DNA of 64,000 nt from Candidatus Aenigmatarchaeota archaeon (GTDB lineage: Archaea > Aenigmatarchaeota > Aenigmatarchaeia > Aenigmatarchaeales > Aenigmatarchaeaceae): the NCBI GenBank assembly GCA_043802485.1, contig JAZDKZ010000004.1, positions 1 through 64,000 of the forward strand, in the 5' to 3' direction. A program made the position numbers. This document shows positions 36,001 to 42,000 of this stretch, piece after piece (positions within the stretch are counted from its first letter, which is position 1; each line of letters begins with the position of its first letter).

Positions 36001-39000
36001 TGAACAGTGGCGGGGACAACATAGTCATGGTTGAGCTAAAGGTTCCGGAAAGCGACCTAGTACCTTTGTACAAGCTATTAGAGTTTACCACGCCGCAAGG
36101 CTGGACATACGCATATACAACAAAAGATGGTCAAACACCATACAAGGTAACTTGGACAACAGAAGGAAGCGGAATAGCAGTAGGAGAAACTGTGAAATTC
36201 GGAGTAAGGGCACAATCACCCAACGAGAAGGGCGAATTTGTCTGGTCTTGGATGACAAAGGATGTAGCAGGCTCTGCAAAGTCAGGAACCCTGACAACAA
36301 AGACAGGCTCAGCACCTTTGGCTTACCTGAAGATAACAGCACCTTCCAAAACAAAGGCAGGCAACTCGTTTGGAGTAACAGTTACAGCATACGACAGTTC
36401 CGATAGAATAAAGACCGATTATGCAGGAACATTAACTTTCAGTTCATCTGACCCCCTGGCAACACTAGCAGGTTCGTACACCTTCAAGACATCTGACAAC
36501 GGCGTCAAGTCCTTATCGACAAAGTTGAGGACGGCTGGGGAGCAGACGATAACTGTGAGTGATGTTAGTAGCAAGATGTTTGCAACAAAAACTCTGGAAG
36601 TTGAAGCAGGAAGTCTTGTATCATTGAAAATAGTCGCAGACGATTTGGATACAAACGTCGGCCAGACTGTTGTGTTCAATGCATTAGCAAGCGACCTTTT
36701 CGGTAACCAAGTCGATGTTACGGACGGAACCACCTGGAATGTTGACGACGAGGCAGACGGCAGCTGGAAGGACAACACATACAAGACAGCAATCAGCGGC
36801 CTGTGGGTCGTTACCGGAAAATACAGCACACTAGTTGACGGTGTGGTGTTGAAAGTCGGTGGACAGGTTGTGGAAGTAGAGGTGCCTGTTGAAATCCCAG
36901 TTGAGGACACAACGACACCAGAAGAAGAGGTTGTGGTACCGGAAATACCAACAGCAGAGATGACAATAAGCGGAGACGATGCTATAACAATTCCTGCAGG
37001 CTCGAACGATACAATGGTCCTTACTGTCAGCAACAAAGGCGACGTAGACCTAACAGGAGTCATGTTGAGCTTTACAGGCATACCGGCTGACTGGGTATTA
37101 ACATTCCCACTATCCAGCGACATAGCAGCAGGGAGCTCAAAGGACTATCTGGTGATAATCTATGTGCCGGACAACGCAACAGACGCCAGGGACATAACGT
37201 TCTCGGCAGTGGCTGACGAGGGAGCAAGCGCAGAAAAGCAGGTCTCACTAAGCCTTGTATCGCCTGCAACAGGTTTGTTGGAAGCGATTCCAAAGAACAT
37301 CTTGCAGCTGGGCGTGGTGATAATTGCAGTAGCAGCGGTCATCATAATCGGTTGGGAACTCTGGTTCAAGAAATAGTACTATCGACTTTTTTCACATTTT
37401 CTTTTTATTTTATCTTGTCAGATGTTATTTTATAAAATGTTTTGAGAATATTCTATAAGTGATAATATGAATTCCGACGAGCTGAAGAGGCTGTACATAG
37501 ATTTTTTCAAGAAGAAGAAACACGCAGTTATTCCTAATGTTTCCCTTATACCGGAAAATGATTCTACAGTGCTTTTTACTACAGCAGGCATGCATCCGCT
37601 AGTTCCATTTCTTTTGGGCCAACCGCATCCGCAGGGCAAAAGACTTGTTAATGTCCAAAAATGCTTTAGAACCAGTGATATAGACGAGGTTGGAGACGAC
37701 TTTCATCTAAGCTTCTTCGAGATGTTGGGCAACTGGTCGTTGGGTGACTATTTCAAAGAGCAATCTATCTCATGGAGCTTCGAGTTTCTGACCAACAAGG
37801 AATGGCTCGGAATAGACAAGGAAAAACTTTTCGTTACAGTATTCGAGGGCGATGAAAATGTCCCAAGGGACAATGAAAGCGCAAAGATATGGGAAGGTCT
37901 GGGCATATCAAAGGAAAGAATATACTACCTTCCTAAAAAGGACAATTGGTGGGGGCCGGCCGGTAACACAGGTCCTTGCGGGCCTGACACTGAAATTTTC
38001 TATGACACAGGCAAGGAGGTGTGTGGTAAAGATTGCAAACCGGGCTGCTCGTGCGGTAAGTACAACGAAATATGGAACAATGTTTTCATGCAGTACAACA
38101 AAAAGACTGACAGTGTGTATGAAGAGCTGGAGCAGAAAAACGTTGACACCGGAATGGGAGTCGAAAGGACTATAGCCGTCTTGCAAGGAAAAGATAATGT
38201 GTATGATACTAAATTGTTTGCTCCTCTGATTAAAAAAATCAAAGAACTGTCAAAAAACGCTAACGAAAGGAGCATAAGAATAATCACAGACCATATGCGC
38301 GCCACATCTTTCATTCTCGCAGAAAATATAGTTCCGAAGAATGTGGAGCAGGGATACGTTCTGAGAAGGCTGATAAGAAGGTCCATAAGGCACGGGAAAC
38401 TTTTGGGAATTGAAGAAGATTTTCTGACAGACCTGGCAAACATAGTTATCGAAAATTACAAGAAAGAATATCCTCACTTGGAAAAAAACAAGGAGTTCAT
38501 AATCGAGGAGCTGAAGAAAGAAGAGAAGAAGTTCAAGAAAACTCTTGAGAAGGGCCTAAGAAAGTTCAAGGAATTGACAAAAGACAAGAAAGAATTAGAC
38601 GGCAAGGAGGCATTCCTACTATTCCAAAGCTATGGCTTCCCCATAGAGATAACCAAGGAGCTCGGAGAGGAGAGTGGGATTGAAGTAGATGCGAAGGGCT
38701 TCTGCGAAGAGTTCGAAAAGCATCAGAATATATCAAGGTCCGGTGCTGAGAAGAAATTCGGCAGCGGACTCGCAGACACTTCAGAAAAGACGATAAGGCT
38801 TCACACGGCAACGCATCTGCTCAATCAGGCCTTGAGGAAAGTCCTGAAAAAGGATGACATCTACCAGAGGGGCTCGAACATAACCCCAGAAAGGCTCAGG
38901 TTTGACTTTAACTTTGACAGGAAGCTGACCGACGACGAGTTGAAGCAAGTGGAGGACTTGGTGAATCAGAAAATAAAAGAAGCAATCCCTGTGAAGAGAA

Positions 39001-42000
39001 TTGAGACGAGCTTTGATGAAGCGAAAAAAATGGGAGCACAGGGCGTGTTCGAGGAAAAGTACGGCGAAAAGGTCTTTGTCTATTCCATAGGCGATTTCTC
39101 ATGCGAGATATGCAGCGGCCCGCATGTCGAGAACACGAAAGGACTAGGTCATTTCAAGATTGTAAAGGAGAAGGGAATCGCTGCCGGCGTTAGAAGGATA
39201 AGAGCTGTTCTGGATTAATACTAGCTCATCACTAACTAAACAATCACTCTATCCGATATTTATCTGAACCTTGTCCTTGATGTCCAACAAAGGCAAATCC
39301 AATCTTGCCGTCACAAACCATCTCACTTCCGTATCCTTTCCTGATAATATCTGACCAGCCTTTATCAACGTACCTAAGTTGTTATTTGGTAGTGATGGAT
39401 TATCTGATATCCTAGGAATCTTCATATTGAACTTGTATTCTCCCTTTGAGTATTCCTTTTCTCCGTCTAATTTCTGCTCGAAATCAAACACCTTCACCGT
39501 CTTTGTTTCCATATTCATATTTCCACTAATATTTGAAGTCGTCCTAGTTTTCTTTTCTCCATATATTCCGACTTTCAATGCTTTCGCCTTTGTAGGTTTC
39601 AAGTCAAGTATTACCTTGCCTTTTATGGTGTCTCCTTTGGAGAAATTGAACTTTTCAAGGACGACTGCTACCTTCTTTTTACCTAAACCAAACATTTTTT
39701 TCACCCTTTATAATTTACAAAACCATGTTTATTAATCTTGCATCATTTGTGTAAAGAATGCGTAATGTGGAGGGCAGGATTTGAACCTATGTATTATCTG
39801 TAGTCTATTCTTACGACGTCCATGTTGTTTATTTTGTATAGCTCATAATCCTTGTTCTCCACAAAGCTTGTATAAGAAATTAGGCAGTTGCTACAGACGT
39901 ACATTTTCATGGAGTGGTTCCCGTTGTTGCAGTAATCAAATATGCATGTTGAATTGAAGGTCTCCCCCCATATACCAAAGAAGTCTTTCAGTCTGACATC
40001 ATCATCAGTATTTTTGTATATAATGCTGTCATAATCAGTTGTGAAAAGTATGTCTGTCGCATTGTTGACGATACCAACTCCCGCGGGTATTTGTTGCAAA
40101 TTATTATCAATATATATATTCAGTCCAAAGGCCCAAACGTCGCTCTGCTTCTGAGTTGGGAAAGCGAAAGACAGGGCATAGGCAAAGCTGCTGAACAGGA
40201 AAGCTGATATTATGAAAATGCTTATTATTTTCTTCTTAGTAGACTTTTTCATTTCTTTGCACCGTAATCCAGCGGGGTTTTCTCGCCGTAGAACCCGCCC
40301 TTGATGAAAAGGTAGGCGTTTGTGGCAGCGACAGCACCGCCTGCTGCGGCAGTGACTATCTGCGCCAGGGCACCTGTCACGTCACCGGCAGAGTAGACGC
40401 CGGGAATGTTGGTCTCCATCATGTCGTTGACCTTGATATAGTTCTTTTCCGATACTTCAACTCCAGCAGACCTGACAATCTGCGTTGTGGGAATTTCTCC
40501 AACATCGATGAAAACTCCGTCAACTTCCAGCTCTGTTATTTTCTCATCCTTGACGTTCTTGATAATGATCTTCTTGACAACGCTGTCGCCTTCTATCCTC
40601 TCGACAACAGAGTCCCAGATGATACTGACCTTGGTCTTCTTCAGATTCTCCTGATTCTTTTCCTCTGCCCTTAATTTATCTCTTCTGTGGATAAGGAAAA
40701 TTTCTGATGCCAATTCACTCAGGTAAATAGCCGACTTTACAGACGTGTCCGAACCACCTATAACAGCAATTTTCTTTCCTTTGAAAAGCGGGCCGTCGCA
40801 CGTGGCGCAGTAGGAGACACCCTTGCCTATGAACTTGTCCTCGCCCTCGGCGCCGAGCTTCCTGTGCTGCATGCCTGTTGCTATTATGACGACCTTTGAT
40901 TCATACTCCTTGTCAGAGGTTTTTACCTTTTTGACCTTGCCAGAAATATCAAACGATTTCACAGTATCCACAACTATTTCGCAGCCCGCTTTCTCGGCCT
41001 GGGCTTTCATCTTCTCGGCCAGCTCCATGCCACTGATGGGTTCTGAACCAGGATAGTTCTCCACAACATGAGCCCAAGCCATCTGGCCTCCCAATTTCTC
41101 GCCGATTATCAAAGTCTTCAGGTTTCTCCTGGCAGCGTATATGCCAGCAGCCAGGCCAGCAGGCCCTACGCCAACAATTATTATATCATATTCCATGACA
41201 TCACATAATTATATTAATAAGATAGCTATTAAATTTAATAACTATAATATTTGAAGGTTTTTACATGGATCAATGGGTACTTGATATAAAGCAAAGGGCA
41301 TTGACAGGAAAGCCCCCTGTTTCTGGAGGCAGGTCAGACAAGCTCAACAAGGTCAGCTTTGACGGTCTTGTCTTCGTTCCAGCCCAGTTGACGAAAAGGC
41401 CTGTCGACTATTTCAGGGACAAGGTCGATTCTGAAACCATTATAGGCAAGACTTCAAAGCATCCGTTGAAGCTAAAGATTCCGATTCTTGTGGGAGCCAT
41501 GAGCTTCGGTGCCCTGAGCAAGGAGGCCAAAACGGCAATTGCAAAGGCATCAGCCACGGTAGGCACAGCAACCAACACAGGGGAGGGCGGCATGCTGCCG
41601 GAAGAAAGGGACAACTGTTCTTTATTGATAGCACAATATTCTACCGGAAGATTCGGAGTAGATGATGATTACATCAAAAAGGCGGACGCCATCGAGGTGA
41701 AGATTGGCCAGGGCGCAAAGCCTGGGCAGGGCGGGCTGTTGCCTGCTCACAAGGTCACGGATGAGGTGGCAAAGGTGAGAAAAATTGAGAAAGGCAAGGA
41801 CGTCCACTCGCCGCCATACCACCCGGACATAAAATCTGTTGAAGATTTGAGGAAGAAGATTGAATGGCTGAGAGAAAAGAGCGGAGGCAAGACAATCATA
41901 CTGAAGCTTGGCGCAGGCAATGTCGAGAAGGATGTGGAGATAGCGCTGCAGGCAAACCCTGACGTGATAGCCATTGACGGCATGGAAGGGGGGACAGGCG

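Follow-up and report, generated by a model that had tools for sequence, protein, structure and literature searches.

A small, bacterial-type alanyl-tRNA synthetase in the native alaS slot of an Aenigmatarchaeota archaeon

The working alanyl-tRNA synthetase (AlaRS) of this Candidatus Aenigmatarchaeota genome (GCA_043802485.1), that of a tiny archaeon of symbiotic type, is most likely a small enzyme of CPR ancestry, derived from within the DPANN archaea, which has replaced the native gene in its slot. The gene lies in the window analysed here, the first 64,000 nucleotides of contig JAZDKZ010000004.1. The first-pass annotation had presented cross-domain replacement in DPANN as new; however, the small-AlaRS family in CPR and DPANN, with transfer to archaea proposed, is already found in the available part of a preprint (Alvarez-Carreno et al., bioRxiv 10.1101/2023.05.29.542759), so that a headline of cross-domain transfer adds little. 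The analysis adds at least four entries within the phylum, occupancy of the native slot, a foreign catalytic core in relatives and a glutamine where E. coli has Asp400 (D400). No prior description of the slot occupancy, the spliced core or Gln for D400 was found in the literature searched. As far as available, the text of the preprint names no donor, entry count, in-place replacement, mosaic cores or Asp-to-Gln exchange, and its figures S2 and S3 (alignment, tree) may show Aenigmatarchaeota.

The gene and its family

37467..39218, + strand: small-AlaRS gene, 583 aa, intact open reading frame, sole alaS detected in the genome
37467..38738, + strand: aminoacylation module (catalytic and tRNA-recognition ATL domains), residues 1-424 (Pfam PF01411 at residues 5-447; fold match 3hxu)
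37665..38276, + strand: catalytic core, residues 67-270; this segment is of foreign origin in the same-genus genomes G011 and G012
38340..38342, + strand: Asn292, equivalent of E. coli Asn303 (3hxu alignment)
38625..38627, + strand: Gln387, aligned with E. coli Asp400, which reads G3 (3hxu alignment; column counts)
38739..38780, + strand: short, probably flexible linker, residues 425-438, replacing the barrel domain (model pLDDT)
38781..39215, + strand: editing domain with His446, His450, Gln467, Cys549 and His553, to the protein end, no C-Ala (PF07973 at residues 538-578)

Judged by its sequence, the protein is a small-AlaRS of the curated PRK01584 family, without barrel and without C-Ala. 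It scored 918.4 bits against NCBIfam NF002436/PRK01584 (cut-off 529), its residues 1-582 aligning with model positions 1-592 of 595, and it has the catalytic, ATL and editing domains and the bacterial-type sequence of the small-AlaRS in the available part of the preprint. The score for the bacterial model TIGR00344 was also above its cut-off (627 vs 457 bits), while that for the archaeal model TIGR03683 was far below (249 vs 744.7 bits); archaeal AlaRS are about 900 aa long. In fold and catalytic residues the aminoacylation module agrees with that of the canonical AlaRS of bacteria (E. coli, Aquifex; TIGR00344), the predicted model matching the E. coli fragment 3hxu with a TM-score of 0.87 by target length (rmsd 3.0), but the protein is about 290 residues shorter and carries Gln at the Asp400 position. 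The linker is the sole stretch of the model with pLDDT below 50, and the span from residue 419 to 446 is 27 residues long, where full-length enzymes have a median of 134.5. From Cys549 to the C-terminus there are 35 residues (median 211 in full-length enzymes), and a Pfam scan of the 583-aa protein found no DHHA1 domain. The five editing residues are conserved in the alignment columns, and the editing domain is 46% identical to bacterial, 29% to archaeal and 25% to AlaXM counterparts.

That this is the only AlaRS gene, as first annotated, was borne out by tblastn (E<=1), for which the locus is the sole match in the 769-kb genome. Five archaeal-type AlaRS queries from relatives recovered no other alaS in the genome, a single query giving two weak extra matches (E 0.02 and 0.44), and a similarity search of this genome for a remnant of the archaeal enzyme found none. 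The earlier worry that a second AlaRS might be missing from an 89% complete genome is largely answered by the position of the gene in the native slot. Its GC3 (0.53) matches the genome mean (0.535), so the gene appears ameliorated; a recent arrival was rejected, the compositional signal being absent.

The native slot and the distribution of the small type

33920..35712, + strand: rpl1-rpl10-rpl12 cluster, marker of the ancestral alaS slot (Pfam L1, L10; synteny), rpl12 being presumed from sequence features
35841..37376, + strand: 511-aa probable surface protein directly upstream of alaS (weak PF10633; synteny)
39794..41196, - strand: 152-aa open reading frame and a gene presumed from its motifs to be thioredoxin-reductase-like; conserved downstream flank (synteny with G002, G019)

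The locus is a case of in-place xenologous displacement: the gene is foreign, the flanks are native and the native gene is gone. In two relatives (G002 and G019) an archaeal alaS stands between the same flanks that bracket the small-AlaRS gene here, and is likewise preceded by a homologue of the 511-aa protein. Within family f15, common flanks are found in G099, which has an archaeal AlaRS, and in G100 and G104/G108, which have two different small alleles, and the small gene is in or adjoining the native slot in several families. The species tree of the family under study requires two changes of AlaRS type, the archaeal gene being vertical in G019, G008 and G005. Gene displacement in situ was reportedly described by Omelchenko and colleagues in 2003.

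The arrangement also resembles homologous replacement, in which a transferred gene takes the resident's place and which, in the part of the source available, is put at 90% of testable transfers in haloarchaea (Williams et al., PMC3542582). It differs in the low identity, only about 25%, between the arriving gene and the resident one, and in the reversed orientation of the new gene in families f21 and f25. Given this low identity, the first entry into the slot was not a plain allelic exchange; later spread may have proceeded by recombination in the flanking genes.

Small-type AlaRS (best E<1e-50) was found in 45 of 371 genomes of the phylum and an archaeal AlaRS above the family cut-off in 254, in agreement with the annotation that most relatives keep the archaeal enzyme. 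The two are nearly exclusive, as 44 of the 45 small-type genomes are without an archaeal AlaRS. Only G140 holds both, and its reading as one cell with both enzymes was not upheld: homologues of the same flanking genes are present on both alaS contigs, which makes a mixed bin equally likely. Extra TIGR03683 matches were rejected as remnants of archaeal AlaRS, being separate AlaXM-sized proteins of 229-236 aa in all four small-type genomes checked (one of them Pfam-scanned).

Elsewhere, among loci chosen mostly for similarity to the query, a match was present in 150 of 151 Patescibacteria (CPR) genomes, where 89 of 92 aligned proteins are small and one full-length and two barrel-bearing relatives also occur. 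The small type was found in 117/301 genomes of the Woesearchaeota phylum, 15/151 Micrarchaeota, 14/71 Spirochaetota, 0/60 Bacillota besides the centre, and 12 of an outgroup set of 30 genomes that includes a Verrucomicrobiota record (one titled Azospirillum belongs to the same phylum). The outgroup rows hold no Proteobacteria, and Asgard archaea, other DPANN phyla, Chloroflexota and eukaryotes lie outside the sample. Three records titled Methanosarcinales are genomes of 0.7-1.3 Mb with doubtful labels.

Ancestry, donor and competing explanations

In the trees the gene is nested among DPANN alleles, within a clade of 122 rows that is almost entirely archaeal (FastTree 0.999) and a 34-row archaeal clade (SH-aLRT 95, LG+C20); support for the backbone is modest, with an SH-aLRT of 81-94 for an all-DPANN clade in reduced trees. 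CPR sequences form a basal grade that held with outgroups of three phyla, although long-branch attraction may contribute in part to this root. AU tests rejected both a single clade for the phylum (delta lnL 302; still 199 without G104) and a grouping of the family's alleles with spirochaetes (delta lnL 312), in trees from fast searches, with one seed for each of two hypotheses, a warning raised with 2000 replicates, a free tree 31 lnL worse than one constrained tree, and mosaic genes that violate the single-tree assumption.

These alignments and trees point to a bacterial (CPR) ancestry of the gene and to an immediate donor that was probably archaeal. The short form would have arisen in or close to Patescibacteria and then passed into DPANN archaea, among which it spread; a DPANN allele akin to those of f15 and the Woesearchaeota phylum would later have reached an ancestor of the genus and taken the place of the archaeal alaS in the slot downstream of rpl12. 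Of the view that a bacterial alaS was acquired and displaced the native gene in scattered lineages, the bacterial ancestry, the displacement and the scattered, repeated occurrence stand, while a clean transfer from a bacterium to Aenigmatarchaeota does not. The donor and number of transfers had been left open for want of a tree; besides the probably archaeal donor, the trees now indicate at least four separate entries into the phylum.

A single acquisition by a DPANN ancestor, with both genes kept and later lost differentially, is improbable. It would account for the single clade that most DPANN alleles form across three phyla and for the small gene lying in or beside the native slot in several families, but the gene tree ignores taxonomy, alleles of family f1 nesting among those of f15 from another order, and monophyly of the phylum fails even when G104 is removed. 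Moreover, G104/G108 have a CPR-nested allele in the same slot, and the two genes co-occur in 1/45 genomes only, there with flanks like those of a mixed bin.

That the short form, once donated by bacteria, was first fixed in DPANN and later passed to Patescibacteria and others is less probable still. Several alleles of the Woesearchaeota phylum are among the deepest-branching rows and the root depends on long branches; however, almost all CPR have the small type and they show its greatest diversity (mean pairwise identity 49.6% vs 57.6%), its occurrence in DPANN is patchy, the full-length and barrel-bearing relatives are in CPR, and the CPR grade remained basal with all three outgroup phyla.

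A spirochaete, clostridial or similar bacterium as the direct donor to this lineage, although suggested by the identity to the Borreliella record (57%, or 58.3% on trimmed columns, much as the 56-58% first annotated for Borrelia and a clostridial AlaS2) and implied by the earlier Swiss-Prot matches, is very unlikely. Ranked by identity, the top 50 sequences are all labelled archaeal and a bacterial label first appears at rank 51; the nearest allele of the Woesearchaeota phylum lies at a patristic distance of 0.76, Borreliella at 1.67. In addition to the AU rejection of the spirochaete grouping, most Spirochaetota and Bacillota have full-length enzymes, and Gln387 has no counterpart in the 33 spirochaete and 22 clostridial alleles, which keep Asp or Glu. 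Borrelia and clostridia thus lose the place of near kin given to them earlier, and the resemblance to Borrelia misleads as to origin.

An artefact of binning or assembly, with a foreign contig bringing in a bacterial gene, is conceivable for a metagenome bin of this completeness but may be dismissed, as the archaeal rpl1-rpl10-rpl12 cluster lies 1.75 kb away on an 88-kb contig, the arrangement is repeated in four other genomes and codon use is that of the genome.

tRNA-Ala recognition, mosaic cores and significance

Of the canonical pair Asn303/Asp400 of E. coli, the first is kept as Asn292, with Asn in this column in 42 of 42 sequences of the phylum, and the second is replaced by Gln387. Glutamine here is common to DPANN and CPR alleles and present in most DPANN alleles. 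The E. coli Asn303 reads U70 (PMC10036535, as far as available). In this enzyme the class II aminoacylation module, joined by the short linker to the zinc editing domain, would most likely charge tRNA-Ala via the acceptor stem alone (G3:U70, A73) with Asn292 and Gln387, and without C-Ala to hold the tRNA elbow.

The annotation had expected consequences for tRNA-Ala recognition. On the tRNA side none appeared: pairs 1:72 to 4:69 and A73 were identical in 6/6 tRNAs of small-type hosts and 5/5 of archaeal-type hosts scored, G3:U70 being retained, in a pattern search that recovered tRNAs in 6 of 10 relatives (none from f15; one tRNA without its 3' end). Adaptation of tRNA-Ala to the small enzyme was rejected, since acceptor pairs 1-4 and N73 are alike. 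A consequence of Gln387 on the enzyme side is possible. Its weight is tempered by the Tupanvirus mini-AlaRS, which, in the part of the report available, works without C-Ala and stays G3:U70-specific despite missing the conserved Asn/Asp pair, but which is without an editing domain and derived from a eukaryotic host enzyme (PMC10036535). No biochemical study of the small-AlaRS family was found in the literature searched. The swap may have come at little cost, since the universal G3:U70 stem, kept by both kinds of host, is all that AlaRS needs.

In the same-genus genomes G011 and G012 a foreign catalytic core is joined to the common editing domain, as found by triplet tests, segment trees and DNA identity windows; such core swaps may have been anchored at conserved motifs. 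An assembly chimera in G011 is countered at the 3' junction only, which a single 1207-base contig from the probable source sample spans with zero differences; a second run contributed a small share. For the core of the present genome the signal of foreign origin was p 0.006-0.026 with donors picked post hoc, and the core tree gave no placement; G006 against G004 gave no mosaic signal (p 0.21, 0.66). The signal is not unique to alaS, as p<0.05 was also reached by 3 of 18 triplets from neighbouring genes and by 1 of 12 control triplets.

A wider proposal is that alaS in DPANN undergoes hot-swapping driven by recurrent selection, with whole-gene replacements across two domains in the same slot, a core repeatedly exchanged across phyla, a vertical editing domain, an active site escaping an inhibitor, and DPANN/CPR alleles reading G3:U70 in a Gln-based or relaxed way; this we hold to be doubtful.

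One Aenigmarchaeota study has alaS among 54 single-copy genes, and the terms alanyl and synthetase go unmentioned in the main texts of Li et al. 2021 (PMC8407114; one supplement row) and Dombrowski et al. 2020 (PMC7414124). The present results make alaS an unsafe marker for DPANN phylogeny. The locus provides dated cases, within one genus, in which a core gene of translation was first replaced in place and afterwards underwent recombination across phyla, and it belongs to the enzyme family of most Patescibacteria sampled and many DPANN, which has no elbow-binding domain and often misses one canonical reader of G3:U70.

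A single small-type synthetase and its anatomy

The alanyl-tRNA synthetase (AlaRS) gene of this genome (G000) and its surroundings are as follows.

Gene order: rpl1-rpl10-rpl12 and a gene for a probable surface protein (511 aa), followed by alaS (+); on the opposite strand (-), an ORF of 152 aa and a thioredoxin-reductase-like gene
37467-39218 (+): alaS, an intact ORF of 583 residues
39249-39704 (-): a 151-aa arrestin-N-like protein immediately downstream of alaS, not seen at that place in relatives

The 583-aa protein matched the NCBIfam model NF002436 (PRK01584) end to end with 918 bits (cut-off 529), and the archaeal AlaRS model TIGR03683 with 249 bits, below the cut-off of 744.7. 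As the first-pass annotation had proposed, the gene is single: its own sequence detected no other AlaRS-like locus in G000 (769 kb, 89% complete), and five archaeal AlaRS of relatives led to the same locus, plus two stray matches (E 0.02 and 0.44). Its GC3 (0.53 vs 0.535 for the genome) and codon use (68th percentile among 418 ORFs) agree with those of G000.

Pfam placed a class II alanine domain at residues 5-447 and an editing domain at 538-578, and found no DHHA1 domain. The predicted structure (mean pLDDT 91, pTM 0.72) consists of two modules linked by a single low-confidence stretch, residues 425-438, the first of which superposes on the E. coli AlaRS catalytic fragment (TM 0.87). Both the barrel and the C-Ala domain are missing: positions 419 to 446 span 27 residues, where 20 full-length enzymes have a median of 134.5, and the tail has 35 residues, where their median is 211. 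Arg68, Asp227, His446, His450, Gln467, Cys549 and His553, which we take to have catalytic and zinc-binding roles, are all conserved in the alignment. Median identity of the editing domain is 46% to full-length bacterial enzymes, 29% to archaeal ones and 25% to AlaXM.

Other shortened enzymes were also observed. Native archaeal-type AlaRS of 771-775 aa at L429:6361-8673 (genome G099) and L171:6445-8769 (G140) lack DHHA1 yet keep the barrel, with just 53-55 residues beyond the editing domain, and similar enzymes occur in many genomes of families f12, f15 and f16; C-Ala seems to have been lost independently in the native archaeal-type enzyme too. Two Patescibacteria loci, L323 and L325 (686 and 690 aa, the second possibly cut), retain a barrel-length span with a tail shorter than C-Ala, and a third, L324, encodes a full-length enzyme of 904 aa; these are possible intermediates of AlaRS shortening.

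Alvarez-Carreno et al. (bioRxiv 10.1101/2023.05.29.542759) define the same architecture, exactly like that of the 583-aa enzyme, as small-AlaRS, report it from CPR (Patescibacteria), Thermoplasmatota, DPANN and Asgard, and infer its transfer into archaea. The gene is a further member of an established family, and the cross-domain replacement first put forward as new had its transfer step already in print. The term small-AlaRS appeared in no other paper of the literature searched.

Distribution and replacement in the native slot

Within the phylum, the small type (E<1e-50) was found in 45 of 371 genomes and 7 of 40 families (f1, the family of G000, 5; f15, 27; f19, 1; f21, 3; f25, 6; f30, 1; f38, 2), a distribution as scattered as had been suspected. 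Archaeal AlaRS exceeded its family cut-off in 254 of the 371, and only G140 among the 45 carried both enzymes. Two alaS loci were seen in the bins G004 (L159, L160), G140 (L171, L172), G555, G646 and G1214; the flanking genes of G004 and G140 are also doubled, which suggests mixed bins. Small alaS lies across two adjacent frames at L169 (G244) and L170 (G136), owing to a frameshift, a split or sequencing error.

In other phyla (E<=1e-40, centre genome counted unless stated), matches were present in 150 of 151 Patescibacteria genomes sampled, and 89 of 92 aligned CPR proteins lack barrel and C-Ala. The small type was found in 117 of 301 genomes of the Woesearchaeota phylum, which we take to be Nanobdellota, 15/151 of Micrarchaeota, 9/101 of Thermoplasmatota, 12/30 of Verrucomicrobiota and 0/60 of Bacillota (centre genome not counted). 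Only 14 of 71 Spirochaetota genomes had it, the remaining 56 matches being full-length or fragments, so Borrelia is a minority carrier.

The proposed displacement of the native gene was supported by gene order. The slot downstream of rpl12 holds the small gene in G011 and G012 (of the same genus as G000), G004 and G006, and the archaeal gene in G002 and G019. Archaeal alaS lies four ORFs beyond the slot in G008, within a few genes of rpl12 in G001, G003, G015 and G017, and about 7 kb off in G010; no link to rpl12 was found on the contigs fetched for G005 and G014. A neighbour-protein tree (18 rows) placed small-type G004 and G006 inside a genus whose two other scored members are archaeal-type, implying 2 changes, and the archaeal alaS of G019, G008 and G005 form one clade (100/100) consistent with it. 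Three further f1 genomes (G002, L154; G001, L161; G010, L162) have an archaeal alaS that stands outside this clade and groups instead with the f7 gene L111 (G036; 100/100); archaeal alleles appear to have been exchanged within the slot as well.

What fills the f15 slot, between ileS-like and leuS-like synthetase genes (L429 flanks), differs by genome: G099 has an archaeal gene, G100 a small allele of the DPANN kind, and G104 and G108 an allele nested in CPR. In 6 of the 8 f21 and f25 loci seen, small alaS sits next to rpl12 and faces it (exceptions: G222, with two intervening ORFs, and G225, with no rpl12 visible), which points to insertion and loss rather than allelic exchange. Of 75 loci from the Woesearchaeota phylum, Micrarchaeota and CPR, taken with 1.5-kb flanks, only one had the slot neighbours. 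At Woesearchaeota-phylum L181:1438-3978, small alaS faces rpl12-rpl10, as in f21/f25.

Origin and mosaic cores

The enzyme is 57% identical to a Borreliella record, reproducing the reported likeness to Borrelia; the kinship read from it did not survive phylogenetic analysis. Trees of 325, later 362, proteins (582 columns, 11 archaeal-type rows excluded; sampled without Asgard, other DPANN phyla, Chloroflexota and eukaryotes; taxa labelled by record title or by a handle's phylum) recovered the small form as a single group in which CPR is the basal grade. One clade (SH-aLRT 96-97) brings together the alleles of spirochaetes, clostridia, Verrucomicrobiota and Thermoplasmatota; most DPANN alleles fall in another. 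G000 alaS falls within a 26-row phylum clade, chiefly f15, adjoining Woesearchaeota-phylum alleles (FastTree 0.97-0.98); the phylum label changes 5 times on a 78-row tree, at least 4 of these forced by starred branches. AU tests (fast searches, about 31 lnL noise, 2000 replicates, one seed for the last two hypotheses) rejected a grouping of f1 and spirochaetes (delta lnL 312), one of the f1/f15 alleles and host-associated bacteria (170), a single phylum clade (302; 199 without G104) and CPR monophyly (443), and did not reject f1 monophyly.

In segment trees (45 rows, bootstraps not settled), the editing tail (residues 425-583) unites the five f1 alleles (100/99), and the catalytic core (67-270) disperses them: G011 groups with a Woesearchaeota-phylum allele (100/95), G012 with f15 G083 (100/99), and G000 has no resolved placement. 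G011 matches the foreign allele at 29/35 informative sites within residues 67-200 and 22/142 outside, and G012 at 52/89 inside vs 5/40 outside (p 0.002 in each case, the lowest value that 500 permutations allow, with donors picked after the fact). G000-G011 DNA identity is 52-61% across codons 91-270 vs 67-81% elsewhere. As a caution, p<0.05 was also reached in 1/12 control and 3/18 neighbouring-gene triplets, with chi-square at most 19 where G011 gave 32-62. The 3' junction of G011 lies within one contig, free of differences, from what is probably the source sample; no contig bridges the 5' junction, where a motif matched at >=90% by contigs of many other organisms suits a recombination anchor and assembly risk alike.

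Recognition of tRNA-Ala and proposed working

According to PMC10036535, AlaRS reads G3:U70 via Asn and Asp (E. coli N303 and D400), and a viral mini-AlaRS keeps its specificity without either. Aligned to the E. coli structure, N303 corresponds to Asn292 and D400 to Gln387. Gln occupies the D400 position in 39/42 proteins of the phylum, 59/69 of the Woesearchaeota phylum, 16/16 of Micrarchaeota and 38/92 of CPR, Asp or Glu in spirochaetes (33/33) and clostridia (22/22), and Asp in Thermoplasmatota (16/16). All 11 tRNA-Ala scored (three of G000, three of small-type and five of archaeal-type relatives) have G1:C72, G2:C71, G3:U70, C4:G69 and A73. Of the consequences for tRNA-Ala recognition once anticipated, those on the tRNA side are not borne out, acceptor stems being the same in both host types, and an enzyme-side one is possible at Gln387, judging from the alignment. 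The effect of the Asp-to-Gln change may be small, because Gln387 could well remain a hydrogen-bond acceptor for G3, and specificity persists in the viral enzyme, which lacks both residues. No report of such a Gln reader, of in-place replacement or of cross-phylum core swaps appeared in listings from the literature searched, where most subscription journals are absent.

In Thermoplasmatota small-AlaRS (L260-L268 and related), Asn303 is replaced by Lys or Arg (16/16), and G374 of that phylum has an additional separate 498-aa frame resembling the editing and C-Ala part. The tRNA-Ala(UGC) of G000 (contig C6, 219794-220322; L422) has an intron of about 455 nt with a 140-aa Cys/His-rich ORF (L422, 366-788) without a Pfam match.

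Alanylation would most likely proceed through the acceptor stem, and editing would act in cis, possibly weakened by the loss of C-Ala, deletion of which cuts tRNA affinity of E. coli AlaRS up to 13-fold (PMC10036535). The gene would have passed from CPR to DPANN and on to the genus of G000, and may later have spread by recombination; that inhibitors were the selective force is speculation.
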